This document shows, in pieces, positions 2,883 to 27,219 of a stretch of 64,000 bases of DNA; the stretch's first letter is position 1, and every line of letters begins with the position of its first letter. This DNA comes from Nemertoderma westbladi. Taxonomy: Eukaryota > Animalia > Xenacoelomorpha. The notes beneath the pieces are model-generated. The model worked only from the letters and a program-made list of their open reading frames with translations. It did no database searches and had not been told where the DNA came from. Both the position numbers and the translations under genes were made by a program. Location: NCBI GenBank assembly GCA_032718475.1, contig JAUCBJ010008889.1, positions 1-64,000 on the forward strand, in the 5' to 3' direction.

Positions 2883-5800
2883 TTAGCAAACAGTTGCACG
2901 TAATTTAAATGCATGAAAAATATATCGCGCAATATTCAAAACTTTAGTAGGATCGTCAGTTTGCATTAATTCAATAAATTTTAAAAAATTCGGGAAAACC
3001 ATATATCTCATACCCAAGTATCTGCACCGCAGGCTGTGATAAAAAGTGCAACCTAATAGAAAATGGTACTCGTCTTCTACTAAATTACAATCGCACATAT
3101 TGCAAATTCGCTGGTCCCTAGCTATACCGTACAAAAAACCGGCGCAACGCTAAATGATTACTCAATACGTAAATGTAAGTAGAGGGTTTGAATATTTCCT
3201 TTATATAAAATCTTCCTTTTGGGGACGATGCTACTTCTGATCTCCAAAATTGCACAAACTGATCAGTGATACGTTGCTTTACATTGAATAGAAAAGTGTT
3301 AACACTATCACCTACATCCTGATTTTGCCAAGCCCAACTAAATCCTAAATCATTTAGTATTCCTCTTAATTGCACAACCCAACTTTTTGGCGTTAAATGA
3401 CTTACTACTATCTAGTACGTTATTCAAATCATTGCACAACATTAAATAAGCCTGTTTCACCAACCTAGTATTTGGTAGATTAATAATTCTGGTCCAATAC
3501 TTAACTAATCTGAATCGACGTTCGAAAATAAGTTGTAATTGACCTGTCTCTCCATATACTGCAAAATTTGGAGTTGTTTTTTTTAACACCCAGAAAATTT
3601 TTCAGAAACCGTAAGTGTACCCTTTCTACATCATCAGCTGTATCAAAACCCCAAATTTCAGCACCGTACATTAAAATAGGTTTCACTAAAGTGTTGAATA
3701 AATTTATAGCACAATCGAAAGTAGAATGGGGAAATCGTACAAAGTATTTTAGTAAAGAAAAATATGCTCTACTACCTTGTTCTGCAATGTTACTTTGAGC
3801 AATATAAAATTTTCCAGATACCGTGAAGATAATACCTAAATATGTATACTGATTAATTTTTGGCATCACTTTGTTATTGTAGTAAAATTGCACCGCCGAT
3901 GGACGACCTTTGTGACCAAAAACAACAACATTAGATTTATCTAAGTTTACTTCCAAGCACCAATATTTACAATAAAATTCTAGAATTATTAGGGATTGCT
4001 GTAAAGCTGACTCAGTCTCTGCCAATATAACGATGTCGTCAGCAAATAGCAATAAGAATAATTTCATCGTACCAACATCTATACCTTCAATGCCACCTTG
4101 TCTTAATTCGTTTTCCAAATCATTAATAAAAATACTGAACAAAAAGGGTGATAAGCTCTCACCTTGTCTTACTCCTATAGATACTAAAAATGTTTCTGAC
4201 AATTTACCATCTACTTTTACACATGACTTTACACTACTATACATATTCTTAATAACATTTAGCATTTTGCCACCCGCACCTAAATTGATTAATTTCAACC
4301 ATAAAGCTGCACGACTAACTGAATCGAATGCCTTTTTCAGGTCAATAAAAGCACAATATAATTTTTTCTTACGAGTTAACAAAAAGTGATCAATAAGCGC
4401 ACGTAAAACAAACATTTGGTCAACTGTAGAAAACCCTGCTCGAAAACCACCCTGGGCTTCAACTACAATACCATAACAATTTGCCCACCATTGTAAACGA
4501 CTATTAATAACGGATGTGAATAATTGACCCAAAATTGACAACAGAGTTATTCCCCTATAGTTACCGGGATCCGACTTTTTCCCCTTTTTAAACAATGGAC
4601 ATATAATTCCAATTGTCCAATCTCGTGGAAAATTGCCCGAATCCAAAATAGCACTAAATAATAATGTTAACACCGGTACTAACTGATCCCGACCTTCAAT
4701 AATAAATTCACTAATAATATTGTCTACACCTGGAGATTTACCGCGCTTTAACTTATTAATAGCGTTATTTACTTCTACTTCATCAAATGGCATACTCAAA
4801 TCATTCTCAAAACAATTTCTACTTTCAATTATATTAACATTTCTACCTACGTAACTACTACAATTCCTTCCCAAATCCTGAAAATTTGAATTGTTTGAAC
4901 TAAGTCGCTCGAAATATTGTTTAAACTCATTAATAGATGGTTCATTTGCCCCTCTCGGAATAGCAACCCGGCAAATAGATTTCAATTTTTTCCAAAACTT
5001 TTTCGGGTCTGACACACGTGCCAGGTTCAGGCGCTGCGCTTCATTTCTCGAATATTCAAATCGGGTTTTACGCAGGGTTGCTTTATATTGAGCACGGCTC
5101 CTTTGAAGTAAGGAATACGCTTCAGGTGCTCCAGAACTTTTCCAATTAGACAACGCACTATTAAAAGCCAACTTTACATCCCTACATTCTAAATTAAACC
5201 AAATTGCACCATTACAAAAGGAATTAACATTACCTTGTTCGTTATCAGTTCGATGTAATGATAAAATTTCTGCCTGACGATCGAATATATCCGAAAGGTT
5301 CCCCACCGCAGCGTCTAAATTTTGCAGTGGAAAATTAACATCGGAGATAATTAGGTCGCCAATGTTCTGCAGCTCGTTTATCATATTTGCATCTTTCATA
5401 TTCGCATTAAATTGCTGTTTAACTCTATCGTTCCAAAAATAACGGTTTACTGGAGTACCCTCAACATGTATGTTACTAGCATCGGGTTCAGTAGCATTTG
5501 GCTCGAGAAATGTTTGCACTTCTAATTTAAATGAAATTGTACAGTGGTGACTATAAATATTTGGGATACCAATAGAAAAATCTGTACAATGCCCCATCAT
5601 TGGTACTGTGCCTAGTACATAATCAATTGTAGAAGAACCATTGCCAGAACGAAAAGTAAAATCACCACAGGCTTCGTCATTCCCTAGCCTTCCATTAAAA
5701 ATGCGTAGGCCAGTGTTTTTACATAGGGTTAATAATGTTGTACCATAGGCATTTACCTTTTTATCAAAATTATTTCTATCGGTATTTATACAATAATAAA

Positions 5801-6512
5801 TAAATTCATTTTCATCATCAACCTGGTCACCAATAAGTGATTCATCACAATGTGTAATCATCCCGCCATTGATTACAATATAATCGCATCCTTTAGCCGT
5901 TCTGGCATTTAAATCACCAATAACTAGTATATATGCACTGTCCCAATAAAATGCCAACCCTCTTTCAATATCATCAAATAAGTCAATTGCACTGTTGTTG
6001 TGGCTAGTGGAATTGTACGGCGCTATATATGCACAACAAAAAATAAGATCCCTTTCTAAACCTAAACATTGTTTATCTAGTTTTAACCATATAATATCTT
6101 CTACACTGAAATCATTTAGATTGGTTACGTGTGGTTCTAGATCAATTTTAAAATATACCAGCACTCCACCACTGAAGCGTTTTGCACTACGATGTTTCTT
6201 ATTCCGACACACCTTAAAATAATTATATCCCCCTATATCTAAGTTTAGTAACCCATATGGAGCTAACCAAGTTTCCGTACATATAAAAATATCGTGTGCT
6301 CGCACGAGTTTATGAAAATCAACATCTGCTAGTGCTGAACTAATACCTTCAACATTTAAATGTCCTACGTTAAGTGATCTAGTAATTGCAGGTTCATCAG
6401 AAACGGAAAGTGTAATATTAGTAGTTATATTATTGTTTACCAAGTTTTGTGATCGATCATCATCATTCGAGTTTAAACTTGAGAGCCCGAACTGATTAGT
6501 TTGGCACCTCAA
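2883..6512 (-). pseudogene. LINE ORF2 (APE-RT), with about three frameshifts in the C-terminal part (~3580, ~3360, ~3135)
   Basis: APE motifs: GHLNVEG, CTETW, GDLNART, TIDYV. RT motifs: NYRGITLL, FIDLKKAFD, GVRQGESLSP, LLFADD, YTYLG. The C-terminal RICNMC..EDEYHFLLGC lies in fragment 2883-3134. Confidence 0.9.
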
Positions 6513-7255
6513 CCGTTGGGTTGTGGATCACACGTTCCGGGGTGCCCTTCTCCCGTCTCATTGGCTGGCTGATCGAGAGAGCCTTCCTCCGGCTCATTGG
6601 CTGGCTGATCGAGTGAGCCTTCTTCTTCACCCAGCACGTCGAACACGTTGTGAAGATGCAAACTAGAGACCTGAGAACCCTCTTGAGGTCTACCAGCAGT
6701 ATCATCAGAACCAGACAGAGGTTGTGAGTATTTGCCGGGAATTATTATCCATTCGGGATTTGAAGGAGTAGAATTCAGTGATCGTTGAAGCTGAACTGTA
6801 ATTGGCGTCTGCGCCCCAGCATTTTCAACCGTCTCAGATTGTATAATACCCTGTTGTTGATATTCTGTGACATCCATTTCAGCCTCGCAGATTGACTCTT
6901 CAATGTGCACGAGCGGATCCATTTCTATAGTAGACCTGGTGACCGAAGAAGAGGACACAGTTGTGCTCGTTGGCGCGGGCGTAGTGGGCGCGGGCTGCCC
7001 CATAGTGGGTGCGGGCTGCCTCATGCGTTGAGTGGGCAGAACTGTAGTAGTAGGCGCGGATGGCCCTGAAGTGGGCGCGGGCGGCCCCGTGCGTTGCATG
7101 GGCGGCCTTGTAGTCGGCGCGGGCGGCCCCGTGCGTTGCATGGGCGTCCTTGCAGTAAACGCGGGCGGCCTTGCAGTGAACGCGGGCGGCCCCGTGCGCT
7201 GCATTATAAGCATAATGCATTTAGGGGTTGGGATTACTCTCTCAGACCTAAGCAA
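6509..7255 (-). CDS. Probable LINE ORF1 C-terminal remnant, Pro/Thr-rich with internal MQRTGPPAPT repeats
   Basis: It abuts and overlaps the ORF2 start on the same strand and has low-complexity repeats. No domain recognised. Confidence 0.5.
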   Translation of the reverse strand: MLRSERVIPTPKCIMLIMQRTGPPAFTARPPAFTARTPMQRTGPPAPTTRPPMQRTGPPAPTSGPSAPTTTVLPTQRMRQPAPTMGQPAPTTPAPTSTTVSSSSVTRSTIEMDPLVHIEESICEAEMDVTEYQQQGIIQSETVENAGAQTPITVQLQRSLNSTPSNPEWIIIPGKYSQPLSGSDDTAGRPQEGSQVSSLHLHNVFDVLGEEEGSLDQPANEPEEGSLDQPANETGEGHPGTCDPQPNG

Positions 7256-7840
7256 ACCAGTTCAATGTGGAGGGAACCAACTACACTACGTTTGTCTATG
7301 GGATGTCTTTTTATCGCCAGCTTGCTGACTTTTCTAGTTAATAATTAATAAATAGGGCTGCCTTTGATGTATTGTAATGTAATAGGTTTGGCCATGGACT
7401 TCTAGAATATTAATTAATACCAGGACTGGAAACTGTTTATTCGGAAATACCAGTTGAGGCCTACTTTCTGGTTTTTGCTAACAGTTATTTATTTTAGGAA
7501 TCATCATATCTAAACCGCTACCGTTTGAGTTTTTCTGAAAGGAATTTAATAATTTATGTTGGATTAGATGCCCAGATTTCTCAGTTTTAATTATGTATAT
7601 AAAATAACCCTTTTATCTGTTAATAATAATAATAATAAAAACAATTTATATAGCGCCAAATTTACATTTTAATAATCTAAGGCGTTGAAACAACAGTATC
7701 GTTCACATTACGTAGTCAAACAACTTAGAATAAAATAAACTATATCTAAAATTTTGTAAAACATGTTTAAAAATTGTGTTAAAATATTCGGTTCAGTTAA
7801 AACAATTCCGAATTCAAATTACTGGGAACAAAACAAGGAA

Positions 7841-8810
7841 TAGGAGTAGCGCCCACCCCTACCTTCGGGTAGGTAGCAGATAGGAGTAGCGCCCACCCCT
7901 ACCTTCGGGTAGCAGATAGGAGTAGCACCCACCCCTACCTTCGGGTAGCAGATAGGAGTGGCGCCCACCCCTACCTTCGGGTAGCAGATAGGAGTAGCAC
8001 CCACCCCTACCTTCGGGTAGCAGATAGGAGTGGCGCCCACCCCTACCTTCGGGTAGCAGATAGGAGTAGCACCCACCCCTACCTTCGGGTAGCAGATAGG
8101 AGTGGCGCCAACCCCTACCTACCTTCGGGTAGCAGATTGGAGTAGCACCCACCCCTACCTTCGGGTAGCAGATAGGAGTGGCGCCCACCCCTACCTTCGG
8201 GTAGCAGATAGGAGTAGCGCCCACCCCTACCTTCGGGTAGCAGATTTGAGTAGCACCCACCCCTACCTTCGGGTAGCAGATAGGAGTAGCGTCCTTTCCT
8301 ATCTTCGGGTAGCAGATAGGAGTAGCGCCAAGGCGCCAACCCCTACCTTCGGGTAGCAGATAGGAGTAACGCCCACCCCTATCTTCGGGTAGCAGATAGG
8401 AGTAGCGCCCACCCCTACCTTCGGGTAGCAGATCCCCTACCTTCGGGTAGCAGATAGGAGCAACGCCTACCCCTATCTTCGGGTAGCAGATAGGAGTAGC
8501 GCCCACCCCTACCTTCGGGTAGCAGATAGGAGTAGCGCCCACCCCTACCTTCGGGTAGCAGATAGGAGTAGCGCCCACCCCTATCTTCGGGTATCAGATA
8601 GGAGTAGCGCCCACCCCTACCTTCGGGTAGCAGATAGGAGCAGCGCCCACCCCTACCTTCGGGTAGCAGATAGGAGTAACGTCCACCCCTACCTTCGGGT
8701 AGCAGATAGGAGTAGCGCCCACCCCTATCTTCGGGTAGCAGATAGGAGTAGCGCCCACCCCTACCTTCCGGTAGCAGATAGGAGTAGCGCCCACCCCTAC
8801 CTACGGGTAG
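7841..8810 (+). repeat. 36-bp tandem array (~27 units), GGAGTAGCGCCCACCCCTACCTTCGGGTAGCAGATA
   Basis: Directly visible. It produces the spurious GATPICYPKVGV repeat ORFs. Confidence 0.97.
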
Positions 8811-8978
8811 TAGCTACCGAAAGAGGAGCCTTCGGGTCGCCTCCGGCCTCGGCCGACTGTTTGCTTTGCTTTGATAATAAATCATGCTCTGGTCTATAAG
8901 TAGGAGTAAGTTGTGATAAATAATTTATGAATGAATTATCCCAAAATCCAAAAATGTTAGAAATATATTTACTGTAGT

Positions 8979-9310
8979 CTATGCGTATCCAAAAAATGTG
9001 TCGCCCAGAGAGGATATTAGTGTCACCACTGTGTTTTGTTTCTCCAGGGTTGTCATGTTTTGGTAGATAAGAGAGAGTGCTCTAACTTTCCTCTCATTTT
9101 GGTACAATTGTTTACATGAAAGGTAATAATTACCTCCATTCATATGTCTGTAACGTCCAAAGCGGAGCTCTAGGGGATCTTGCAACATATTTCGTGTAAG
9201 AACATAATTAAACTTTAACTCATCCAGACATTACCTTACTACATTGACTAAAGCATTCGTGGTATAAATAAATAAGGGCGTCGAAAGTTTCATTTGCAAG
9301 GGCATTTTTA
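8979..9310 (-). pseudogene. P-element/THAP9-like transposase C-terminal remnant
   Basis: FNYVLTRNMLQDPLELRFGRYRHMNGGNYYLS matches the Q-D-x-L-E-x-x-F-G-x-x-R catalytic-Glu motif. Confidence 0.75.
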
Positions 9311-9739
9311 GATTTTACTATATATTTCGGTAGAGGTCCTCCATGTGGTGAGGGACCTTGAAACATTGCCCAGAAAATTAAGTCGATCATCGGTAGTCGA
9401 ATATATTGGATATTTGGAGGGATCGCGTTTCCGGGAACCTGCTGTTGTTGTTTCAACATTCACTATATACCAATACTAGGCCTACTGTAACTCTCCAGAT
9501 ACGAAATCTGCAGTAACCTTGAAGTGAAATACATCACATTGTTATTGGCAAAGCTAAATATAATTTTTAATAATACTAGCTAGTACACAAATAATAGCTA
9601 CCGGTATTTTTATTTTGCCTATAGCTACCTAGTTCCCAGTCCTGGTATAAATAACATTCTAGAAGTCCATGGTTTGGCCCGCCCAATAATACTCCTACAG
9701 CCAACTCTCTATGTATTCCTTTGCCACAGCTGTCAATGA

Positions 9740-9998: not shown

Positions 9999-10141
9999 TA
10001 AGTAACTTTAAAGGAATGATACATTATTGATATTAACTTTAAAGAAGTCAATCATTTAATAATAGATAAAACGAAACAGTAAAAAATAAATTGAACTGCA
10101 GGATTTTACTGGAGTACGAATTGCAGACATATTGGCATATC

Positions 10142-11284
10142 TGTAAAGGCTTTTGCGTAATTAGCCGGTTATTTTCCCCGTAAAGTACTCTGTAGTTGGT
10201 TTAACCGGCATAAAAGGCCGTGTCCTTACTGTATTGTTGTTTTAGAGGACATAAAAGCCATTTCTTCTGTATGTGTACTTTAGCGGACATGATTAGCAAT
10301 TCTATGACGCAATAAGCCGGATCCTCTTGAAACAGTGTAGATACCATGACGACGGCTAACAGCTGATATTGCCACGTAGAACATCTCTTTGTTCTTTGTT
10401 CTCTCTTTGTTCGGTCGACCAATCAGAGCGTTTTTTGCCTCTGTGTTGGAGATGGTATATAGAAACTAGGGAAGTGAGTCAGTATATGATTTCTTCCACA
10501 GCCTACAACACCGGCGTGGAACCTCTGTGTTTCAGTCTTTAGCTTAACATTAGTAGGCTTAATTATAGAGCGTATATCCGTTATCAAACCATATCAATTC
10601 TTATCACACTAACTTACTTAACATTACTGCTTTGCTGTCGGTTATTCATTATATTTGTTGATGAAATATTATATTCGGAATACTGATAAACAATCAGACA
10701 CCCCAATCTTCTTGATATACTAAAGGTTAGAGAGACCGGATACATATAACGATTGCGACTTACATTAAGTGGTTTGAAGTGAATCTAATGCTATTTTATA
10801 GGCCCTATACGTATTGTCTGTTGTTCTCCTTATATGTGACTAAAATTAGTGAAGGTCGGCAGATTAGAGTGCAGTATTGTGCAGCATTGTGTATGATTGT
10901 GATTGATAACGAAGCATCTCCTAAAGAATGCGCCATATACGTGAATCTATAGCCATCCCGTTGCGTCTGGTTTAAGCCATAACTCTGTTTATATATTTAG
11001 AGCGCCACGTCCTAAAGGAACTGTTAATATTTCCCGAAAGTGAATAATATTGTCAGAGATTTATATATCAAGATCAGTCGAATAATACAGTAGGTCTATC
11101 CCGCAATACGATTAGGCTTCCGAATCCAGTCTCCCGGGTATATCCAGCGGGTGAATGATCGCGCATAGACTGGTTTCGGCTAATGTAGTGTATCAAACAT
11201 TTGTCGTAGGCTAAAGACTATCTATTATCTAGAAGACATCCTAATTTGGCAGGTTAAACTGCTAAAGGTCTGAAAGCGCGAACA
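10142..11284 (+). repeat. 5' LTR (1143 bp)
   Basis: TGTAAAGG...GCGCGAACA. The end is defined by the same GCGCGAACA abutting the TSD at 28144. Confidence 0.92.
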
Positions 11285-11296
11285 ATAACGGATATA
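11285..11296 (+). promoter_or_regulatory. Non-tRNA primer-binding site ATAACGGATATA, complementary to LTR 10573-10584
   Basis: It lies directly after the LTR end, lacks the TGG start of a tRNA PBS, and is the exact reverse complement of TATATCCGTTAT at 10573-10584. Confidence 0.65.
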
Positions 11297-11633
11297 AAGT
11301 TCGGATTGCAGGGTAGGCAATAAATACAGTTTAATATTGTTCTGGTAAGAACAATAACGGATATTGCTTCTGTATTGCAGTAGGCAATAAAGCTGAAGTA
11401 CCGGCAACCGGTACCCAGTAGGCCTGACTACCTAACCACCCGGACCGGTACCTACAGCAGTACAGGTACAGCAGTATTATTCGATTTTGATTATTATATA
11501 CCAGTAGGCCTTAATTTAAAATCAGGGAGGGCCCGCCCTGGTTTTTTATTGAGATTTTACTTATTTCTGTCAAGTTTTATTTATTTGTAGGCCAATATTG
11601 ACCAGAAGGCGTGTAAGCCTGCTCAGATTGTAC

Positions 11634-12213
11634 AGATAATTTGTAGCCTTGACTGTTGTCTAACTGTTGTTAAGTCTGAACGGATTGCAGTGTGTGTAGA
11701 GCATCTGTCTGATAAAGTGCTAGTTAGGAATGTAGGGGCTTCAAATGCTGTGAGGTAAACCCCCTTTGAAAGAATAAGTCGTACTACTAGGTTAGAACGC
11801 ATACTAACTAATCATTTCGGAGTCTGCATATACTATAGTTTATTTAGGCTTGATAGTAGTCTGCCATCGTTTGGTCTGTACTTTGTTTGTGTAGTCTGTA
11901 CAGGTAGCGTATAATTCTTATTTAGATAATTTGTAGGCTGGATAGTTGTCTGGCTGTTGTTAGGTCTGAGGAAATTTCGGTGTGTGTAGAGTGTATGTCC
12001 GATAAAGTGCCAGTTGGGAACGTAGGGGCTTCCAGCGCTGTGAGGTAAACCCCCTCTGAAAGAATAAGTCGTACTACTAGGTTAGAACGCATACTAACTA
12101 ACCATTTCGGAGTCTGCATATACCGTAGTTTGTTTAGGCTTGATAGTAGTCTGTCAGTATTTGGTCTGCATTTTGTTTGAGTAGTCTGTACGCGTAGCGT
12201 AATATTTATTATT
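11634..12213 (+). repeat. Diverged ~290-bp tandem duplication in the BEL 5' leader
   Basis: AGATAATTTGTAG...GTAGCGT occurs at 11634 and 11924. Confidence 0.9.
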
Positions 12214-13555
12214 CAGAGTTTATGCTATTATTCGCAACATTCATATCCCCAAGTTTATTCCTACAGTAATTGTGCTTGTTATACATACCGTTATAGTTAA
12301 ACTAACCCCGGTACTACATCAGGGCTGCTTGGCGTAGGTAAAGACTGGAGATTTTATGCTTTGGTCACTCCGGCAGATACCGTGGTTCTTTTAGCTGTTC
12401 AAGTATTTTTAACTACTGATTATTTGTTGTACAAGTACTTGTACCTAATTTAGGGTTTAGTGTACAGTGCTTTCCGAAGGTAATTATCGTGTAGGCAGCA
12501 TATTTGTGTTGTAAAGTGGTTAATAGGCACGTTGGTTCTGGTAGACCGTGGTAATTAACTTCTGGGTAGGAACACTCCGTGATACATAATGTAGTACTTA
12601 TAGCGATATGGCTATAAGTCGTCAGACGGTGGTATTTTCCTATCTGGACAACGCAGTATATTTACTACTACTTATTATTTTCAAATACCGTAGTACCCTG
12701 TCCGTAGTAATAACCAGATATTCTAACCCTTTGTTAGGCTGGTTAGTAGACTTCTTGTAAAATTACCCTAAAAATTCGTATTTGTGTATTTGTAATTTTT
12801 TTTTTGTGTTTATTTAGAGATTGTAATCTCAACCCGAATTGTACGTAATTTGTAGTATTAAGTAACTTAGGTAAATTAGAATTATTTGTTTTAGTGTCCA
12901 ACAAGTAGCACTTCACTGAGAGCGCACCGCTTCTGTGTAGTGACTCCCCCCAGAAATAATAACATTTATTTCAAATATTGACAAAACCCATTTTAACGGG
13001 TATATATATTATAAATCAACTCTAAGATTTATAAATGGTAGGCCTGCCATACAACAATTAGGTCTAAATATCAGTTGGACTACTGCTTAAATAACGGTAA
13101 TAAAGTAAGTTAAAGTAACCAAGTAACCCCTACAAATTCAGAAATTCAATTATTTAAAATAATTGACATACCAGTATTTACCATAGGCTTATTATATTTA
13201 TTTCTATAAATTTAGGCTGAAATTATACCGGTATTCTGTAATTAATTCTAGTCTGTAATTATACTTATATATATACACTATAAGTGTAAGCTGTATACCG
13301 GTTTTCACGATAGGCCTATTATATATTTATATATATTTGTGCTGGAATTACATACCGGTATCCTGTGACAAACCTAGTCTGTAATAATACTTATATATAT
13401 ACTATAAGCATACCGGTATTCTAATATATTATATATATATCACGCTACACTGAGTAGCAGTATCGGTAATTAATTACTAGGCTAACAGTGATACTGAATT
13501 ACTAGACTTGCTTAAACTGTAATATAGCAGTAGGCATTCAACTGTACAAACCAAC

Positions 13556-16500
13556 ATGTCTGACACAAAGCAAAATCTGTCAGACAGTCTCCTAGATACA
13601 ACCATATGTGACCTAGACAGGAGTGTGGAACGTGTTAAACAGAAGTTCAACTCACCTCCTACTGTAAGAAAGATCATTCCCCCAGTAGTAATATCAGAAC
13701 CCAGGCTGGTCCAACACCGTAGATCTATCATAGGCACTAGAGCTCAGGTCAAGCGGGACCAAGAAGCAGCGGAACAACAACAACTCACGAGCCAAGAACT
13801 TATTTCTCAACGGTCCGACAGCTCCAGTAGTGAGGATACTGTAGAGCTGACACCCGAGCGCGGAGCAAAGATGACGGATGCGGTTTATTCGGATCCCCTT
13901 CTCATCCTTCCTGCAGCCGTACTCACTAGGTTATTGATTGTGGTGGAAGAACACCAGATCGATTGGGCGAGAAGTAAGCGATCGACTAAAGATAGTTATG
14001 CGGGATATACAAGGGAAGAACTTAAGTCTATTGTCGAGTCGCAATGGAACTTCCCCGGACCCGGACTCCCGTTTGATTTATCAGAAGCTGCCTGGGAAGA
14101 TATACACAGGATGGGAGTAACCAAGGAAACCGTCGATCCAGCTGTGTGGAAGAGGTCCGCAGCCGGATACGTACAGGGATTCGTAAGCTCTATGGAGCGA
14201 GTAGAAAAACAACTGTTTCAACAACCCCAAGGACCTCAAGAGCAGGGACAACTGCTTTATCAAGTTAGAGAAAGAATTCTACGAATCAGGCTAATCTTAT
14301 CAGCCTTTGAGGAGGCTTCTAAAAGAAGACAAGACACGTCGTTGCAAGTTGCCGTAAAGACTTGGTTTCAACGGGTGAGCCTCCAGGTGCAGGGAACGAC
14401 TCAGTGGAAAGCCCAACTGGAAGAGCGCTCAACCCATGGAGAATCAACAGACGCTACTTTTTCCCAAGTGGAAAGTGAAGCGACGGCAGAGAAGCCGCAT
14501 AAGAGGGATGCCATTGACATCTATCTGTCGGACTATCAACGTTTTGTAGGAGATGAAGAGTTGAGGAGAAGACTAGAGGGGCTTAGCCCTAATAGTGAAG
14601 GAGCCCAGCGTGTGTTGGACGCAATCGATGTGGATAGGTTAGCTGCGAACCAAGCTAAATTCAATGAAAGCATCCGCATTGCTAAGGTTCAAGAAGAACA
14701 AGTAAAGAAAAAACGTATAGAAGACAGAAAGATAGCAGCAGTGGCAGCAGCAGTGGCAGCGGCAGAAGCGGAAAGAAAGGCTGTAGAAGCGGAAAGAAAA
14801 GCAGCCGAAGTGGAAAGAAAAGCAGCAGTGGCAGCGGCAGAAGCGGAAAGAAAGGCTGTAGAAGCGGAAATAAAAGCAGCCAAAGTGGAAAGAAAAGCGG
14901 CAGCGGCAGAGGCAGAAGCGGAAAGAAAAGCAGCCGAAGTGGAAAGAAAAGCGGCAGAGGCAGTGGCAGAAGCAGAACGAAAGGCGTCTGAAGAGACTGC
15001 CCAACTAGAGTTGGAAAATCTTCAAGAGAAGCAAGACAACTTTAATAAACAGTTAACAGCTAGTAATATGCAGATGATGAATCGATCTACTCCCAAAAGG
15101 CAAGGTTATACATCATCTGAGGAAGGCAATACCACAGATCAGGAAGGCGGAGGAAATCGATCTCGCCTAAGCAGACGTAAAAGAATGTCCCACCGTCAGA
15201 AATTGCCTGATTTGCCCCCAGCTGTTCGAAGGCAACTAAATAACACAAATTTAGGTAGTACAGAACCCACAGACCAAATAATTAAAATAGAAAGACTCCC
15301 TACTATAGTAGATGAGCCTGAAATAATTAGGCCTGTTCTTGAAATCACCCCTTCGGTGATAGAGACACCTGTACTCCCAGAACCTACCTTTAAATTCCCT
15401 TTACACAGCACCAAATTATCTGTGCCTAGAGGAACAGCCCCTGAAACAGTGTCGGTCCTGGACTCCAAGCGAAATATAAAGGATATATCGCCCGTAGTCC
15501 CTCGTCTGCCCGCTACGACGTTAGCGGATCCTGCTTCGGCGGTTGATTGGGTAGACGAGAGACGGCGGGGGATGGATATTCTCCTCGGAAAGATGGAGGA
15601 GAATCGAGTGCGCTCCTCCCAACAGGTCCGAGAGTTAGAAGGGACTGTTCAACAGTTAAAGGGAACCGTAAAGGAAAGTAGGTTAGAGTTGCAAGAAGTG
15701 CAGCAAAGTATCGCGCTAGAACGCGATAAATTAGCAAATTTACAAAAGGGTATACCACCACCCCCGGTAACAATGTGTCAACCTGTTAGGTCTGAAGTAT
15801 CTCATGCGCAAGGTGTGGAGCCTACACGCATATATACTGCTAGCGAAGTAGAAACTCCTATAGTGAACCCTATTAAGGGTAATTATAGACCTGTTGATAA
15901 TGATATTCCCTATAGACCTGATCATAATCCGAGAAATTTATATACCGATAACTCGATATTGAATAACACGATGGCCCAAGAAAGTTTTACGTGTCAAATG
16001 GCTAGAACCGAAGCCCGGCAAGCGGTAAAGGTGGGAGAGATCGTCAAGTTCAATGGAGATGAGATGAAATGGTTACCTTTTAATGAATATTACAAAGATA
16101 ACATACAGAACTCTGTACTATCTAATGGAGAGAAACTTAGATTCCTCATCGAGTGCTTGGAAGGATCTCCCAAGTTAATGGCGTTAAAGTTTATTGGACA
16201 TCCAGACGGATTAAGACAAGTTTGGGATACACTGAACATCAGGTATGGTAATAGGAATAACATAGCTAAATATTTGTATGCAAAATTAGTAGCGCCCCGA
16301 AAGTTCATTAGCAGCGGGATAATAGAGTTTTCCGATGAGATTCAGGAGATCTGTAGACAATTAGATTGGTTAGGTAAGTCTCATGAATATCAGAGTTCTA
16401 TGGTTATTGGAGCCGTGGCCTCTACTTTACCGAAGGGTGGAGTAGGTACACGCTGGGATAAGAAAGTGTTATATATGATGGAACAACAACAACGAGACCC

Positions 16501-17092
16501 TACCATGGCTGATCTCATGTCATTCTTGGATGGCGAAGTGAAATTACAGCTCATAAAGCAGTCCAGAGAGAAGACACCGGAAAACAAGGTAAGTGAGAAA
16601 CCCGTCTCTAGGAGAAAGGTAACACCAGTGTGTTATACAGACGGCGGCGAAAGCCAGACTTCTCAAGGAGAGGATAGCAGGAAAGACACTGAAAGATCTT
16701 ATTATGTCAATAAAACGCCTAAAGAACCGGTAAGTAAATTCAAGTCTCGAACCAATGACAGGAGAGAACAGGTAAGAAAAACTCCTCCTACGTCTCCCAA
16801 GAGAATTCAGGTGAGAAAGCCCGAAGAAAGAACGAGTGTGCACAATGTTATTCAAAATAAGGTAAGTAACATCAAACCGAAATGTGCGCTATGTGACGGG
16901 ACTCACCGTTTGAATATGTGTGATGAATTCCTGAAGAAATCATTAGCGGAGAGACGGGAAGTCATGTGGGATAAGCGTTTGTGTTATAATTGCCTCAGAC
17001 AAGGACACCAACGGCGAACCTGTTACTCCGACACAAGGTGTGCAAAGTGCGGTGCGAAACATCATATCTTGTTGCACACTGAATTCGAGTGA
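13556..17092 (+). CDS. gag: BEL/Pao Gag, 1178 aa, with a long N-terminal extension and coiled-coil repeat
   Basis: DUF1759-like KFNGDEMKWLPF..LSNGEKLRFLIECLEG; BEL-type triple knuckle CALCDGTHRLNMC / CYNCLRQGHQRRTC / CAKCGAKHHILLH. Confidence 0.93.
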   Translation: MSDTKQNLSDSLLDTTICDLDRSVERVKQKFNSPPTVRKIIPPVVISEPRLVQHRRSIIGTRAQVKRDQEAAEQQQLTSQELISQRSDSSSSEDTVELTPERGAKMTDAVYSDPLLILPAAVLTRLLIVVEEHQIDWARSKRSTKDSYAGYTREELKSIVESQWNFPGPGLPFDLSEAAWEDIHRMGVTKETVDPAVWKRSAAGYVQGFVSSMERVEKQLFQQPQGPQEQGQLLYQVRERILRIRLILSAFEEASKRRQDTSLQVAVKTWFQRVSLQVQGTTQWKAQLEERSTHGESTDATFSQVESEATAEKPHKRDAIDIYLSDYQRFVGDEELRRRLEGLSPNSEGAQRVLDAIDVDRLAANQAKFNESIRIAKVQEEQVKKKRIEDRKIAAVAAAVAAAEAERKAVEAERKAAEVERKAAVAAAEAERKAVEAEIKAAKVERKAAAAEAEAERKAAEVERKAAEAVAEAERKASEETAQLELENLQEKQDNFNKQLTASNMQMMNRSTPKRQGYTSSEEGNTTDQEGGGNRSRLSRRKRMSHRQKLPDLPPAVRRQLNNTNLGSTEPTDQIIKIERLPTIVDEPEIIRPVLEITPSVIETPVLPEPTFKFPLHSTKLSVPRGTAPETVSVLDSKRNIKDISPVVPRLPATTLADPASAVDWVDERRRGMDILLGKMEENRVRSSQQVRELEGTVQQLKGTVKESRLELQEVQQSIALERDKLANLQKGIPPPPVTMCQPVRSEVSHAQGVEPTRIYTASEVETPIVNPIKGNYRPVDNDIPYRPDHNPRNLYTDNSILNNTMAQESFTCQMARTEARQAVKVGEIVKFNGDEMKWLPFNEYYKDNIQNSVLSNGEKLRFLIECLEGSPKLMALKFIGHPDGLRQVWDTLNIRYGNRNNIAKYLYAKLVAPRKFISSGIIEFSDEIQEICRQLDWLGKSHEYQSSMVIGAVASTLPKGGVGTRWDKKVLYMMEQQQRDPTMADLMSFLDGEVKLQLIKQSREKTPENKVSEKPVSRRKVTPVCYTDGGESQTSQGEDSRKDTERSYYVNKTPKEPVSKFKSRTNDRREQVRKTPPTSPKRIQVRKPEERTSVHNVIQNKVSNIKPKCALCDGTHRLNMCDEFLKKSLAERREVMWDKRLCYNCLRQGHQRRTCYSDTRCAKCGAKHHILLHTEFE
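14735..14990 (+). repeat. Coding minisatellite in gag (AAEAERKA / AAEVERKA)
   Basis: GCAGAAGCGGAAAGAAAGGC-like units repeated in frame. Confidence 0.9.
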
Positions 17093-17252
17093 AATAGTCC
17101 GAGTCAGGTAAGTGATTCCGAACTACATGTCCAATTCAGTGATGTGAACGACACTGATCAATCTGAGATGGAAGGATTCTATACGGACGAGTTCTCCGAT
17201 GAAAACGAATCCTGTTACATGATAAATACCGCAGTGTATCGAGCACTCACGT

Positions 17253-20200
17253 ATGAAAAAGATACAGACAGCACACCTCACCCTAACTACTTCTGATCGA
17301 CAACCATCTTGGAAAGCGCCATCTTCCAATGTAGGAATCCGAGCATTTCCTGTAGTACAGGTAAGGGTCCACGGACCTAAAAGGAGTTATGTAGTGAACG
17401 CCCTCCTTGACTCCGGTAGTACAGGAACATTCATCGACAAAGAACTAGCCGAAGACATCTTTGCTGGACAACCCAAGTTCCGAACTAAGCTAAACATGTC
17501 AGGAATTATGCAGGTTTGGAAATCTACAGTAATTGCGGATTATTATGTAGGTGCGTTGTCCACCCCCCAGGATGAACTAGGAGAACATAGTATAAGGTCA
17601 GTAAAAATGGTGGCGATAAAGAACTTCACTACCACCCAAGTGGAACCTTATAACTGGGATGAGGACGATTTCACCCAGCAGCTGGAAATACCTAGATTCA
17701 ACACCGATTACCCTGGAGTGCAAATACTCATCGGTCAAAACGCGCATGAAGCGCTCGAGACATTGGAGAAACGGCCCGCTCAACCGCGACCACTACAAGC
17801 TTATGCGGGAAGAACTAGAGTGGGTTGGTACTTTACTGGCCCTTCCCGTAGAACTCTCATGGAAAGATTACCGAAAGACCAGGTATGTCAAGTGAGAGAA
17901 TGGGAAGTCGAGGGCAGTGAGTTAGATGATCTAACTGAGGGAACACCATACTCCTCAGATAATGACGATGTCCACCAACTTTTCGATGAGGAGAACACCA
18001 TCGATCTCCTTAAGGAAAACGAGACTTGGCAAAACCAAGTGAACTTATGTCAGCTCCTTCTTCCATCAGAACGAGACGACTATAACGACGAACTTAATGA
18101 CGTCATTGAACGATATAATGCCAAGACTCGGGATGAACATGCCGTACGATTCTTTACTCAAGAGGCTGTAGAGCCCAATTCCTACGATAAGGCCCTATCG
18201 GTAGAGGAAGAAAGAGGCAAGCAGATCCAAGAGACAACTACACGTTTTCTTAAAGATCAAGGTAGATATGAGATCGGTTTACCTTTCCGAAAGCGAGAAC
18301 CAAAGTTCGTAAACAACAGACCCTTGGCGGAGAAAAGAATTGCTCAACTACATCGACGCCTTACGGCAAATTCTTCAGCTAAAGAAATGTATCAAACGCA
18401 GTTGAAGAAGTTTATTAGCAAGGGATATGCGGAGCTAGTACCGGAAGAAACACCTATAACTGAGAGAACGTATTATTTAACTCACCATTACGTTCCCAAA
18501 CCCGGTAAACCACATGAGGTACGGGTGGTGTTTGACGGCTCCGCCCTCTATATGGGCCAATCCCTTAATTCTGAATTGCTACCCGGACCCAACTTACTCC
18601 AATCATTGTTGGGAATACTTTTAAGATTAAGACAATATTCCATTGCTTTCGCCTCAGATATAGAAGGCATGTTCTTACAAGTCAAAGCGCTGGATAGGGA
18701 TCGAGACAGCCTACGATTTCTGTGGTGGCCTGAAGGAGACCTCAATCAGAAACCGGTGGAGTACTGGATGACCATCCAGGCTTTTGGGATAATCTCGAGC
18801 CCTTCAAACGCCTGTTCCGTGGTGCGCACCACTGCGGATGACAACCGAGACGCCTTCTCTAAAGAGGTGATTGACAACATTAAGCGGGATATATACATGG
18901 ACGACAATCTAAAGTCCCTTCCATCAGTCGAAGAAGCCATCGATGTCGCTAAAGGAACGGTAGAGTGCTTAAAAAGAGGTGGATTTCGATTAACTAAATT
19001 CACCAGCAACTCCCGTGAGTTTCTGGAGTCGATCCCGGTAGAAGATCGAGGAGCAAAAGACCTGGATCTAATAAAAGATGATCTCCCAGAAACTAAGACC
19101 CTTGGTTTGAAATGGGACACCGAAAGAGATATCCTGTTTTTCCAACTAAAACAGCGAGATAATCCAGTTCGGACTAAACGGATTTGTTTAAGTATCCTGA
19201 GCACTTATTTCGATCCATTGGGATTTATTAGCCCAGTTATATTGATTGCTCGGAGTCTAGTACAACAAATGTGGCTTGAAAACCACTCATGGGACGATCC
19301 ACTTAAGGGAGAATTATTAAAGAAGTGGATGAAATGGGAAGATTCTCTACCAGCCATCGAGAACTTTATAATTTCCCGTTCATATTTTGGTCATGTTCTC
19401 CCTACGTATTCCTATCAACTCCATGTGTTTGGAGACGCCAGCGATATGGGAATAGGTATAGTAGCCTACCTAAGGGAGGAAACTCCGGACGGAATCAAAG
19501 TCGCCTTGGTTACTTCTAAGACATTGATAAACAATAAGTTGAAAGTTCCTCGAGCGGAGTTAAAAGCGGCTCTATACGCTACAGCCATCGGCCGGAATGT
19601 AACAGAACAGATCGACTATCCACTGGAGAAAACTGTATATTGGACCGACGCTTTACTCGTGTTGGAGTATATAACCAATGAAGTCTGTCAGTTCAGCGTC
19701 TTCGTTACCAACAGAGTAGCCATTATACTCAGTCGCACAACGATGGATCAATGGAGACATTGCCCCGGAACGATTAATCCAGCAGACATCGCCTCCAGGG
19801 GAGCAACTCCACAAGAACTGGTAGACACTCCAGACTGGTTAGGTGGACCCGACTTCCTCTACAAAGAAGAAGAAGAATGGCCTCCTTATCTTACTACAGC
19901 AGAGATTAGACAGGCCAAGGGAGCGGAGAAAGTCAAACCTAAAACTCGGGCGAGTAAATCGAAGTTATTCAAACCCATGGTAGATCTGTCTGTACTACAT
20001 ATTTCCGGAGACGACGCTTTGGATCAGAAATCCACAGCCACAAATAAACTTGTTGTGGAAATCCGTGAGAAGGATTGGAAATCTGGAATACCAGACGTCT
20101 CGCAAGGACTCTCACCTCTTCTGCAGAGAGCGATACATCACTACAGTTCCTGGAATCGGCTCTGTAAGGCCGTTACATATTTAAAGAGATGTTTTCACCA

Positions 20201-21671
20201 TCACTACTCCGGGATGAAGGCCAAAGGTGATACCGTTCCAATAACATCAGTGCAGGTCCATGTTATTAAAGATCTTCCCAAATATAAGATACCCGACAGG
20301 TTTCTGAAGGAGAAGATCAGTTATCAGGAGCATGAAGAAACCAACAAGCAGATGCTGAGACTCCTGCAATGCTATGAGGATTCCGATAAGTATTTCCTGT
20401 TGTTGAGAAATCCACAGATGCGCTTAAGGGATCGTTTCTCTAGCACAATGATAGATGGGTTGATACGTGTTGGAGGAAGATTAACGAATGCTCCACTATC
20501 CTTTGACACTAAGTTTCCCATACTCATTAGAAATCTTGAAATACAAGTCAAGATGATTGTAGACGTTCACAGCAAACTTTATCATGCTGGTAGGGAACGA
20601 GTTCTTAGCGAAATTCGAACTCGCTATTATTTTTATAAACCTCGTAGAGCTCTGAACCAAGTTCTTAGGAACTGCATACCCTGTAGGAAAGCATTCAGTA
20701 GGCCTTTAACACAGCGAGAGGCAGAATTACCTAGGGAACGAGTAAGCTTCTATGAACCACCCTTTACTAATACCGGTGTGGATTTATTTGGCCCTATTGA
20801 AGTATATCGTGCTAGGACTATAGTCAAGAGATGGTGTGTCATCTTTGTTTGTATGACTTGTAGAGCTATCCATCTCGACATGGTGAACGATTTATCTACC
20901 AACAGCTTTCTATTAAGCTTACGACGACAGATCGCTCGCTTTGGCACTAGTAACACGATGAGATCTGATAAGGGAACAAACTTCATTGGTGCCAACAATG
21001 AAATCAAAGCTTACGTCAAAGATTGGAACCAAAGACAGGTGGACGATCAGCTACGAGTAACAGCGTCTAGCTGGACCTTCAACGCCGCCGACGCCCCTTG
21101 GTGGGGAGGAAGTTGGGAGAGATTAATAAGAAGTGTGAAGACAGCATTTCACTTTATAGTGCCTTGCCGCGCGTATCTCACCGACGAACTTTTGCGGACG
21201 TTAATGGAGGAAATCGCCGCCTATCTCAACGAGAGACTGCTTATGCCAGTCTCATCGAGTCCCGATTCCCTGGAAGCGCTAACACCCGCGCATTTCCTAC
21301 TAAAGAAACCTGTAGCCATGCTCCCACAATCGGAAATCACAGACGGAGACGAATACTGCCGGCAAACTTGGCAACTCATGCAGTTGTTATCCTGTCGTTT
21401 CGCTGATCATTTTGAAAAACATCATCTGCCCATGCTACAACTTCGAACTAAGTGGTTTGCGCAGCAAGAAAACGTCAGCGCTGGAGACATGGTTCTTATT
21501 GTGGATGTAGATCTTCCACGTAAGCGGTGGCAGACAGGTCGTATCATCGAGACTCACATCTCTGATGATGGTTTGGTGCGATCGGTAGAACTCGTCGTCA
21601 TGCGACGTAACTTCAAGAAACCGGGAATTGTCTTCGAGACGCAGCAGCTCAATCGCCCAGTTGGTACCTAA
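17253..21671 (+). CDS. pol: BEL/Pao Pol (protease, RT, RNase H, integrase)
   Basis: ALLDSGST (PR); RVVFDGS, SDIEGMFLQ, YMDD (RT); HVFGDAS, PRAEL, WTDA (RH); H-H..CIPC, GVDLFGP, RSDKGTNF, WERLIRSVK (IN). Confidence 0.97.
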   Translation: MKKIQTAHLTLTTSDRQPSWKAPSSNVGIRAFPVVQVRVHGPKRSYVVNALLDSGSTGTFIDKELAEDIFAGQPKFRTKLNMSGIMQVWKSTVIADYYVGALSTPQDELGEHSIRSVKMVAIKNFTTTQVEPYNWDEDDFTQQLEIPRFNTDYPGVQILIGQNAHEALETLEKRPAQPRPLQAYAGRTRVGWYFTGPSRRTLMERLPKDQVCQVREWEVEGSELDDLTEGTPYSSDNDDVHQLFDEENTIDLLKENETWQNQVNLCQLLLPSERDDYNDELNDVIERYNAKTRDEHAVRFFTQEAVEPNSYDKALSVEEERGKQIQETTTRFLKDQGRYEIGLPFRKREPKFVNNRPLAEKRIAQLHRRLTANSSAKEMYQTQLKKFISKGYAELVPEETPITERTYYLTHHYVPKPGKPHEVRVVFDGSALYMGQSLNSELLPGPNLLQSLLGILLRLRQYSIAFASDIEGMFLQVKALDRDRDSLRFLWWPEGDLNQKPVEYWMTIQAFGIISSPSNACSVVRTTADDNRDAFSKEVIDNIKRDIYMDDNLKSLPSVEEAIDVAKGTVECLKRGGFRLTKFTSNSREFLESIPVEDRGAKDLDLIKDDLPETKTLGLKWDTERDILFFQLKQRDNPVRTKRICLSILSTYFDPLGFISPVILIARSLVQQMWLENHSWDDPLKGELLKKWMKWEDSLPAIENFIISRSYFGHVLPTYSYQLHVFGDASDMGIGIVAYLREETPDGIKVALVTSKTLINNKLKVPRAELKAALYATAIGRNVTEQIDYPLEKTVYWTDALLVLEYITNEVCQFSVFVTNRVAIILSRTTMDQWRHCPGTINPADIASRGATPQELVDTPDWLGGPDFLYKEEEEWPPYLTTAEIRQAKGAEKVKPKTRASKSKLFKPMVDLSVLHISGDDALDQKSTATNKLVVEIREKDWKSGIPDVSQGLSPLLQRAIHHYSSWNRLCKAVTYLKRCFHHHYSGMKAKGDTVPITSVQVHVIKDLPKYKIPDRFLKEKISYQEHEETNKQMLRLLQCYEDSDKYFLLLRNPQMRLRDRFSSTMIDGLIRVGGRLTNAPLSFDTKFPILIRNLEIQVKMIVDVHSKLYHAGRERVLSEIRTRYYFYKPRRALNQVLRNCIPCRKAFSRPLTQREAELPRERVSFYEPPFTNTGVDLFGPIEVYRARTIVKRWCVIFVCMTCRAIHLDMVNDLSTNSFLLSLRRQIARFGTSNTMRSDKGTNFIGANNEIKAYVKDWNQRQVDDQLRVTASSWTFNAADAPWWGGSWERLIRSVKTAFHFIVPCRAYLTDELLRTLMEEIAAYLNERLLMPVSSSPDSLEALTPAHFLLKKPVAMLPQSEITDGDEYCRQTWQLMQLLSCRFADHFEKHHLPMLQLRTKWFAQQENVSAGDMVLIVDVDLPRKRWQTGRIIETHISDDGLVRSVELVVMRRNFKKPGIVFETQQLNRPVGT

Positions 21672-23380
21672 AGAGGTGAGGTCTCTATAGGGGTGCCAAC
21701 AACAGGCGGCGGCGGACTCGTGAGAGTCCGGGGGCACGTTAAAATGGGGCGATAAGTGCAAGGGAGATACTGAAGGCCCTCGTGTCTAGCGAACCATGAA
21801 TTGACATGGTGCCGTGGTACCGTCTAGTCGGCCTGTTGCCGTACTGCCAGTCCTGTACACAGTAGGGGTGGTGGCATAGTGTGATCTGTGGTTTGTGTGT
21901 GGACGATCAGTGGCAGTTTGCTTGAGCTTTCTGTTGCTGTGGGTACGTGGTATATGTGAGTGTATGTATGGCCACTGCGAGTGAGTATGGGAACCCTTGC
22001 CGGTTGGTTTAGTCGCCGCTGGTATTAGTAGGACCATATCTTTACTGCGCCCCAGCATACTTTGTGCACACAAAGTTATTTTGCCCTGACGGCAAAATAA
22101 GATACTCTCGACTCTTTTATTAGTCGATACAATTTTGTCCCCTCTGATTTTGTCACCGATTTTGTCTTTCCCGATTATGTCCTCTGTGTGTGCATGGTAT
22201 GTGTCTGATTTTGTGTTTACCTTTTGTGTACTTGATTATCGAACATCTGTTCAGTACACGTGTACAGTGACTGGTAAGTGGTGACTTGTTCAGTAGCTTT
22301 TTAGCTACAGACAGTATTGTCTTTCTAATACTGCCGGCGAGGCGGGTGAAAACGGTCAATATTCCATGTTGGGTAGCGCAAGCCCACTTGGGACAAGACC
22401 GTCGGTTTGGCTCAAGGGCGACCTTGATGCTCGATCGCTATCGACTGGTCCATCCGCCGGTTGACTCTCTGAGTTGGCTCAATGTACAGTCAGGCCACAG
22501 TAAGTTAACAGTAGGCGATCATTGGAGCATGGATCGGCTACATCGACGAGCTGTGCCGGTGTGATCGGGGGATTGAAAATTGAACCCGGGAAGCATCGGG
22601 CTACCCTCCGGCCCAGTCTGATAAAAACGGAGTCGGACTGGCCCCAAGGGTGGTGGGACAGCGTCCGCCTCATGGGTGCGCCTCGGAGTCATCAGAGAGG
22701 AGCCCAGAAGGACGCAAGCGCGCTTATGTTTACTGGAAAGAGACAGAGAACTCTCCGGAAACTATGGGAGACAAGATACTCTTCCCACGACCACCTCCCT
22801 ACTCCAACAAACATCTAGGGACTCCCCAGCTTGGTAGCATATGGAGTGAGCGTGTGACCATATTATTTTATATTCTTATTATTTTATATTTATGTATGTA
22901 TTATTATGTAATTTTATTATAATCGTTTTATTTAATTTTATTTAGTAGCATGTTATTTTAGCGATTATTTAGTAGATTAGTGCAATATATTCGCGTTTAT
23001 TACGTAATTACTTATATTATATATTTAGTGCGACGGCGAGAAACAATTCTTTTTCTCTTTCCTTACTGCCTGTATTACATTACGAATACGTAACTACAGT
23101 AAGATGAAATGTCCGTACTTATTAAAGTACAATAAAGCCACTACTATATTCAAGTATTATTGGTAGGCAGAGTATTAGGAATGCAAAGTTCAGATCCTCG
23201 TGTCTCGGCTAAACCAAGCTCTGGGTAGACCTTGGAAACGACTTGCCTCTTCACACTGACATTGCTTCGTGCGATATTGCTCTCATACCGTATATTAAAT
23301 AATACATATAGTAGCGTGATGTCCCTTTAACAGTAGCGTATAACGCAAAATAAATCTGTTAAACCCTTTGACCATCTGCA

Positions 23381-23690
23381 ATTCTAGTCGATTAAGATAT
23401 CGCGGCACCCACCGATATACTTGAAAGACAAAATTCTAGAATCAGTGGTTAACGTCCCCAGACAAGTTCTGGAATAAACTGGTGCCTATCCTAAATATTA
23501 ATTATTAATATTTACAAAATCTGTCAAATTTTAGATCCTTTAACATTCTAGTCGATTAAGATATCGTAGCACTTACCGATACTCTTAAAAAGACAAAATT
23601 CCTAGAATCAAGGATCCCAGTCCCCAGACACGTTCTGGAATAAAATTACGTCTATTTAACATTAAATAATAAAATTTACGGGAATAAATT
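23381..23690 (+). repeat. ~165-bp diverged tandem duplication in the BEL 3' region
   Basis: ATTCTAGTCGATTAAGATATCG...GTTCTGGAATAAA occurs at 23381 and 23546. Confidence 0.85.
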
Positions 23691-24454
23691 TAAATTCATA
23701 TATTTCAATGAATTTAATAAATTGTCATTTTATACAATTTATAACATTCCCAAAATTCCATTAATTAATAGATCATGGGAGTGGAGATTCACTCTATTAA
23801 GTGTATTTGTGTGCGAGAATCTCCAATATATAGTCAATACCCGATAAAATTCATAAAATCATATATAGAGAGGATATTGACAATTAAAGAATTACTATTA
23901 AATAGCATCCCAGATCTGTATGCATGAGAATTACCCTAATTCTACCGCTAGCTTTCCATAATGTCACCATGGCAACAACCACGCTAGAATTAGAAGTGAG
24001 TTAAAAGAACAATAAAGGGCTTGCGCATTGAATAGCATACGGAATAAATAGCACACCGCTAGTATCCAAGGATACATAATAACAACGTGACATTCTGGAA
24101 GGCACTTGACTAACGGACAAATGACCCGAATGTGTGATAGAATGTGTACCATTTGTGACAGTTACGTGGAATTTGTGCATTTGTAGGTGAATGTTACTAC
24201 TAAGGTGTGTTTACAGTAGCGAGTCGCAATTGTGAAAGTAGCCCTAACTCTCCAGTAAGAACCTGAAGTATATCTAAGCCTTTGGGACGGACGGTGGAGT
24301 GACTTGTGCTGGTTGTTGTAGTCGTTGTGCAGCTACGACGTTGGCGATAGGCACATCGGCGAAAGTACACCAGCGCTGAGGATCTCGCACTGTCCGGGGG
24401 CAGAGAGGGGTAGGCAGCGACGCCCGCTCGCCTAAATATAAACTCATTATAATA

Positions 24455-26050: not shown

Positions 26051-26068
26051 ACTTAAATCCCATTTTCT

Positions 26069-26076
26069 GGGAGCGG
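26069..26076 (+). promoter_or_regulatory. Polypurine tract (GGGAGCGG)
   Basis: Purine-rich run directly before the TG of the 3' LTR. Confidence 0.7.
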
Positions 26077-27219
26077 TGTAAAGGCTTTAGCGTAATTAGC
26101 CGGTTATTTTCCCCGTAAAGTACTCTGTAGTTGGTTTAACCGGCATAAAAGGCCGTGTCCTTACTGTATTGTTGTTTTAGAGGACATAAAAGCCATTTCT
26201 TCTGTATGTGTACTTTAGCGGACATGATTAGCAATTCTATGACGCAATAAGCCGGATCCTCTTGAAACAGTGTAGATACCATGACGACGGCTAACAGCTG
26301 ATATTGCCATGTAGAACATCTCTTTGTTCTTTGTTCTCTCTTTGTTCGGTCGACCAATCAGAGCGTTTTTTGCCTCTGTGTTGGAGATGGTATATAGAAA
26401 CTAGGGAAGTGAGTCAGTATATGATTTCTTCCACAGCCTACAACACCGGCGTGGAACCTCCGTGTTTCAGTCTTTAGCTTAACATTAGTAGGCTTAATTA
26501 TAGAGCGTATATCCGTTATCAAACCATATCAATTCTTATCACACTAACTTACTTAACATTACTGCTTTGCTGTCGGTTATTCATTATATTTGTTGATGAA
26601 ATATTATATTCGGAATACTGATAAACAATCAGACACCCCAATCTTCTTGATATACTAAAGGTTAGAGAGACCGGATACATATAACGATTGCGACTTACAT
26701 TAAGTGGTTTGAAGTGAATCTAATGCTATTTTATAGGCCCTATACGTATTGTCTGTTGTTCTCCTTATATGTGACTAAAATTAGTGAAGGTCGGCAGATT
26801 AGAGTGCAGTATTGTGCAGCATTGTGTATGATTGTGATTGATAACGAAGCATCTCCTAAAGAATGCGCCATATACGTGAATCTATAGCCATCCCGTTGCG
26901 TCTGGTTTAAGCCATAACTCTGTTTATATATTTAGAGCGCCACGTCCTAAAGGAACTGTTAATATTTCCCGAAAGTGAATAATATTGTCAGAGATTTATA
27001 TATCAAGATCAGTCGAATAATACAGTAGGTCTATCCCGCAATACGATTAGGCTTCCGAATCCAGTCTCCCGGGTATATCCAGCGGGTGAATGATCGCGCA
27101 TAGACTGGTTTCGGCTAATGTAGTGTATCAAACATTTGTCGTAGGCTAAAGACTATCTATTATCTAGAAGACATCCTAATTTGGCAGGTTAAACTGCTAA
27201 AGGTCTGAAAGCGCGAACA
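26077..27219 (+). repeat. 3' LTR
   Basis: Copy of 10142-11284; I saw only about three substitutions by eye. Confidence 0.93.

Follow-up and report, generated by a model that had tools for sequence, protein, structure and literature searches.

A contiguous candidate self-primer in a BEL/Pao retrotransposon of Nemertoderma westbladi and predicted splice-built primers among its relatives

The window analysed here, a 64,000-nt stretch of Nemertoderma westbladi DNA (contig JAUCBJ010008889.1), contains at position 10142 a young, recently inserted LTR retrotransposon of the BEL/Pao superfamily. We estimate at roughly 0.68 the probability that this element primes minus-strand DNA synthesis with a contiguous arm of its own RNA, encoded at 10573–10584 on the forward strand. 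Judged by analogy, it is probably a case of Tf1-like self-priming, in the intron-less form of a primer that many relatives are predicted to build by splicing. The feature is real, and would give a known mechanism a new form within a superfamily that has been described as tRNA-primed.

In the proposed route, the transcript would probably begin at or just before 10572, and in vivo the arm would fold onto the primer-binding position at 11285–11296. The RNase H of the element, acting as in Tf1, would cut after 10584 and release the primer. Reverse transcriptase would then extend the released arm directly into the LTR end, with zero spacer, yielding a strong-stop DNA of about 700 nt.

Organization of the element

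Positions 10142–11990 recur at 26077–27925 with only 3 differences in 1849 nt (99.8% identity), and a partial third copy of the LTR sequence terminates at 28144. The 5' LTR (10142–11284, forward strand, 1143 nt) ends at 11284, because ATATC flanks the whole arrangement on both sides, as target-site duplications at 10137–10141 and 28145–28149, and the LTR reads TGT..ACA; one public contig terminates at the same base. These observations bear out the LTR end that the sequence-only reading had fixed from the copy at 28144. That reading overlooked, however, that the copy at 28144 closes a deleted tandem remnant and that the full second LTR lies at 26077–27219. A later LTR end, with GTTCGG at 11299 as the site, is ruled out by the target-site duplication and the contig end, which fix 11284. 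The simplest reading of the layout is an LTR–internal–LTR element of 17 kb (10142–27219) and, behind it, a second unit in tandem, shortened by a loss of about 15 kb. This second unit starts with a copy of the leader carrying both primer-binding sites (27220–27925) and ends, after the internal deletion, with the 3' remnant of a third LTR (27926–28144).

The gag gene (13556–17092, forward strand) encodes a DUF1759 domain, C-terminal Cys/His knuckles and a long low-complexity insert. The pol gene (17226–21671, forward strand), in a frame other than that of gag, encodes protease (DSG), reverse transcriptase (YMDD), RNase H (PF05380) and integrase in the order PR-RT-RH-IN, together with DUF5641 and an integrase zinc finger recognized by Pfam. 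The RNase H is of the Pao type, and its predicted acidic, catalytic D-E-D-D motifs are in place. The gag stop is the TGA at 17090–17092. The frame stays open for about 67 codons further, overlapping the start of the pol frame, and GTAAGT lies shortly 3' of the stop. Recoding, splicing and a lesion are each candidate explanations.

The 2.2-kb leader between the LTR and gag contains internal duplications of 290 and 120 nt (11634–12217 and 13168–13408) and carries six ACCGGT and five TAACGG motifs. Neither AATAAA nor ATTAAA is present in the LTR. Two AATAAA motifs lie shortly downstream of it (11319 and 11386), and in the tandem copy these motifs come after the second LTR. The 4.4-kb 3' region includes two overlapping extra open reading frames without a Pfam match (24683–25605, forward strand). 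Atlas searches with the 3' reading frames gave leads below 0.9 or none; for the first of the overlapping frames in the interval 24683–26000 the leads below 0.9 were to tyrosine-recombinase-like families (DUF3435, DUF3504, ResT-TelK). A purine-rich stretch at 26069–26076, the putative polypurine tract, abuts the second LTR with zero spacer, as does the purine tract of one related family (L023). Agreement between the spacers of the polypurine tract and of the primer-binding site, judged by eye and not used as evidence, is seen in some families only. Public contigs of one organism cover 10142–12000 very deeply and unevenly (a summed depth, not a copy number), which suggests a large and diverse family.

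The arm, its binding position and the start of the transcript

The 12 nt at 11285–11296 are the exact reverse complement of 10573–10584, as had been proposed from the letters, and the neighbouring positions on both sides are unpaired. Nor does TGG follow the LTR, again as claimed; the first TGG downstream of it is at 11343. The working rule for self-priming, at least 10 nt of LTR complement 0–5 nt after the 5' LTR and no tRNA site, takes its 10-nt sequence rule from the accessible part of PMC6317226; the window element has 12 nt at offset 0. When the 30 nt after the LTR were shuffled, 2 of 20,000 trials reached 12 nt at offsets 0–5, and second-order Markov LTRs held the complement in 52 of 40,000 trials at offset 0 and in 134 of 40,000 at offsets 0–5. 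Across null models the chance of the match is thus 1e-4 to 3e-3.

A second copy of the LTR end and site, with an 11-nt complement, lies 69 nt downstream (11349–11364, forward strand) and was overlooked in the sequence-only reading; in public contigs, some copies of the family skip the 69-nt interval with this second site. The arm lies 700 nt from its first site, as against 78–361 nt in the relatives described below. It lacks a preceding CA/AC context, and it ends in AT, compared with AC in 19 of 20 relatives. In public contigs from four sequencing runs, none of the 40 letter differences listed (of 491) falls in either arm. Likewise, the 15 joints listed (of 17) include no candidate splice. Both results are weak hints.

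Folding predictions give the helix between the arm and the first site a probability of 0.00–0.01. The arm is predicted to favour instead the second site (0.98) or LTR-internal positions 10904–10911 and 10935–10942 (0.86–0.99), and a three-duplex structure around the first site is not predicted. Folding predictions are unreliable over long distances, and poor folding is likewise seen for 6 of 16 relatives. Positions 10570–10942 are predicted to form a long imperfect hairpin within the LTR that sequesters the arm; in the model this hairpin could be a competing structure or a switch. A stem between the U5 end and the leader (11279–83 with 11299–303) was set aside at a probability of no more than 0.03.

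A TATA/Inr-like pair at 10456/10479 had earlier been offered as a possible start of the transcript. This placement is doubtful and now appears the less likely one. A related LTR fragment on the reverse strand at 3–389 (about 82% identical; its own primer site is outside the window) aligns with 10538–10584 (81%) and with 10625–10854 (82%) but not with 10142–10537, and because the alignment begins only at 10538, the vicinity of the arm is favoured over 10456/10479 as the place of the promoter or of the start of R. Judging from this conservation, the block at 10538–10584 is likely the core promoter or the start of R. The related fragment keeps 10 of the 12 arm positions; one of the two that differ is the 3' base. 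The proposed Inr also overlaps the sole GTRAG donor-like motif of the LTR, a candidate GTGAGT at 10474–10479 (forward strand), an overlap missed in the sequence-only reading.

Primers of the relatives

A protein search with the window element returned 739 matches, the best 44–45% identical, and the named ones came from marine invertebrates; a search of viral contigs found no relatives. From an alignment of 16 rows we obtained 80 metagenome loci, the best 80 of 455 confirmed. LTR ends could be fixed from direct repeats, picked by eye, in 17 loci. A TGG site of the tRNA type was seen in two of them (L020 and L077), which are also the only two among the 80. Most of the other fixed-end loci have a contiguous complement of only 5–11 nt, with a T-rich tract plus AG in front of it and a GTAAG donor upstream; joining donor to acceptor lengthens the complement. 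In 12 of the 17 loci, a complement of 10–15 nt spans a GTRAG..YAG junction inside the LTR. Swapping sites between families gave 2 such matches in 298 (both from one pair with a common primer), and shuffling gave 2 in 1800.

Since the junction rule was first seen on these 17 loci, all 80 were then scanned without LTR ends. This yielded 27 matches with introns of up to 250 nt and 31 with introns of up to 600 nt. The 31 loci represent 20 distinct primers, the complement starts 0–5 nt after an ACA, and the site pairs over 10–15 nt only with the spliced junction. The reverse strand and the coding regions each gave none in 80, and a relaxed scan allowing G-U pairs found no further loci. The predicted LTR introns are 66–372 nt long. 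In three loci with longer LTRs (L004, L046 and L058) the intron measures about 370 nt, and they share an 11-nt primer with L010 and L015, where the intron has 164 nt. Another locus, L053, has a 2.6-kb direct repeat (1–2631 and 6722–9352, 99.8%) at both contig ends, which may be a copy in tandem or an overlap left by the assembly.

Forty-nine loci were roughly readable, and the splice-junction type, with 29, is the commonest among them. The other 20 include the 2 with TGG, 3 with a contiguous 10-nt arm (L051, L054 and L056), 2 with a junction but no ACA (L030 and L059), and a remainder with none of these. Contiguous 10-nt matches, taken alone, are near noise in the relatives (10 of 38, against 4 and 2 in the nulls). 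Primer columns 3–10 from the 3' end show three or four bases across families while the pairing stays perfect; because pairing was the rule of selection, the evidence rests in the nulls and not in perfect pairing. The check for covariation across related families, proposed with the original observation, came out positive between families: many BEL/Pao relatives have non-tRNA, self-complementary sites whose sequences differ. In 13 of 21 contexts a CA dinucleotide marks the start of the primer, compared with a background of 0.145 (the families are not independent), which is consistent with a transcription start site. In RNAs spliced as predicted, the primer helix reaches a probability of at least 0.83 in 10 of 16 relatives, and in unspliced RNAs it is at most 0.51 in all 16.

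The suggestion that this BEL lineage primes itself is supported in part, by the self-complementary, non-tRNA sites that occur across the relatives; it had overlooked the predicted need for splicing in most of the readable ones. In these relatives the primer would be split by an LTR intron and joined by the predicted splicing. Since the intron lies inside the primer or ahead of it, it would be left out of strong-stop DNA, and progeny could retain it only through a 3' LTR copy that remains unspliced in the RNA.

Contiguous arms comparable to that of the window element, of 10 nt each, occur in two families, L051/L054 and L056. L056 has no donor in its 177-nt LTR and groups with the spliced L033 and L076 at 95/85. 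Its nesting among them gives intron loss a precedent. If a spliced 3' end were copied, the LTR would come out without its intron and with the arm already joined. L056 likely arose in this way, and the window element may have done so too. The tree with this grouping has 39 rows, one per chosen family; L069, too short, was left out of another tree. The window reverse transcriptase has a branch length of 1.6–1.9, is at most 45% identical to the others and is unplaced in the tree, so the relatives serve as an analogy and not as proof of shared descent of self-priming. On balance we lean slightly towards the broader view that a large part of BEL/Pao consists of splice-built self-primers rather than tRNA-primed elements, and that repeated intron loss has given rise to contiguous primers, of which the window element is one case. 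If this is true, splicing at the 5' end would be a licence for reverse transcription while the intron copy at the 3' end must be retained. If self-priming holds here, all three LTR superfamilies would include tRNA-free members. The splice-built form would tie retrotransposon replication to the host spliceosome, which can be tested by ordinary RNA-seq, and many BEL/Pao elements of animals may go unnoticed or be misjudged by LTR finders that demand a tRNA site.

Alternative explanations and known systems

An unlikely explanation of the complementarity is that it is incidental, reflecting a common short DNA motif or an RNA-structure element, with priming by another route. TAACGG, which we take to be a Myb-type core, occurs five times in the leader, 10 times the background, and a motif so enriched could inflate the match of arm and site. 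The folding predictions, which favour other partners for the arm, point the same way, and in a very large scan a chance of up to 0.3% for each element cannot be neglected. Against this, pairing stops exactly at the LTR boundary, a tRNA-type site is absent, and self-complementary sites at the same position are the commonest type among the readable relatives (29 of 49). We also consider it improbable that the window primer is itself built by splicing, through a 673-nt intron at 10580–11252 or an intron from 10474. Joining the GT inside the arm at 10580 to the AG at 11252 would give an 11-nt primer about 30 nt from its site and would do away with both the 700-nt gap and the LTR hairpin that competes for the arm. 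When every GT may serve as a donor, the best junction for the window element is 7+4 nt at offset 1. This donor, however, reads GTTATC, whereas the matches in the relatives are all GTAAG or GTGAG, and GT is missing at this position in the related LTR. By a rough estimate a 4-nt junction match of this kind is expected about 15% of the time, and the acceptor at 11252 lies inside a hairpin with a predicted probability of 1.0. The GTGAGT at 10474 has pyrimidine-rich acceptors 60–95 nt downstream, within or just under the 66–372 nt of the relatives, and such an intron would put the arm in exon 2 after a short first exon, but joining 10474 to acceptors just upstream of the arm does not strengthen the pairing. 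None of the 20 canonical GTRAG..YAG junctions in the window LTR matches the post-LTR site, and strict and relaxed junction scans of the window found none.

It is very unlikely that the primer at 11285 is half of a host tRNA, as it is in some copia lineages, or another small RNA of the host. An anticodon loop has U at position 33 and a purine at position 37; checked by hand, only 1 of 12 registers (offsets 0–5, ends at 39 or 40) agrees with such a loop, and this one has no paired stem. No tRNA genes were found within the window, and Rfam reported nothing above threshold over 10100–13600. Priming by tRNA halves is known in Osser, Bryco and Bianca, according to the accessible text of PMC6317226, but it would leave the 12-nt LTR complement unaccounted for. 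Self-priming through the contiguous arm remains our preferred reading.

According to the ICTV, the Belpaoviridae are primed by host tRNA, with an 18-nt site for tRNA-Arg or tRNA-Gly, have genomes of 4.2–10 kb and are poorly understood (PMC8742986). The window element resembles them in its gag-pol with the order PR-RT-RH-IN, PF05380, DUF5641 and DUF1759, in its purine tract and 5-bp target-site duplication, and in its LTR, which at 1.14 kb with TG..CA falls within the 0.2–1.2 kb of the family. It differs in its length of 17 kb and in having no tRNA-Arg or tRNA-Gly site; this site is a described trait of the family and not its phylogenetic basis.

Self-priming has been described for the Tf1/sushi group and predicted for Tcn1 and TAR/Houba/Osr-1 (accessible portions of PMC6317226, PMC4600332 and bioRxiv 2022.12.06.519325). 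In Tf1, the RNA's initial 11 bases pair with the site and RNase H cuts between bases 11 and 12 (PMC7175516, as far as accessible). Like Tf1, Tf2 and Tj1 of this group of Ty3/gypsy chromoviruses, which includes the plant Tcn1, the window element has no tRNA site, has an RNase H, and has an LTR segment of 11–12 nt complementary to a site directly after the 5' LTR. It belongs, however, to another superfamily (Pao-type RNase H, DUF1759, DUF5641), and Pfam found no chromodomain match in it. It therefore works like the Tf1/sushi group without being a member, as its Pol lacks the chromodomain of that group. Unlike in Tf1, the three-duplex 'pretzel' (reported in the accessible part of bioRxiv 2022.12.06.519325) is not predicted, the arm is 700 nt from its site, and the start at the arm is a conjecture; the BEL/Pao relatives moreover split the arm with an intron, a trait not found described for Tf1 in the accessible sources. 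Outside the gypsy group, tRNA-less primer positions are reported for TAR/Houba/Osr-1 copia elements, whose prediction from sequence follows the 10-nt rule applied here (PMC6317226, accessible part), and for the fungal GalEa (PMC5445492, accessible part). These elements differ from ours in their copia domain order and in their plant or fungal hosts, and GalEa, on the same partial text, uses a local hairpin and has no LTR complement.

Self-priming was noted from the outset as not known to be described for BEL/Pao, and searches of the accessible literature agree: they found no case of BEL/Pao self-priming and no primer with an LTR intron, although subscription papers, Repbase/GyDB and supplements, which lay outside their scope, may contain an earlier mention. 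In the accessible text of four papers on BEL/Pao or LTR elements (PMC554778, PMC3118150, PMC6238403, PMC2774666), term searches located no passage on the primer-binding site or priming.

Other repeats lie elsewhere in the window. A non-LTR element with endonuclease and reverse transcriptase, accompanied by an upstream ORF, occupies 3501–7261 on the reverse strand. At 34284–37459, about 2.5 kb is open in all six frames (801–910 codons), with an inverted repeat at 34284/37158; the two frames tested gave no Pfam match. Remnants with matches to aspartyl protease, integrase core and reverse transcriptase are found at 41088–42452 (reverse strand) and 49342–51361, the integrase and reverse transcriptase pieces being on opposite strands. 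Tandem arrays with units of 36, 33 and 20 nt are located at 7764–8913, 40347–40653, 45627–45947 and 53311–53571, and at 53.3 kb the 20-nt array has internal palindromic symmetry.
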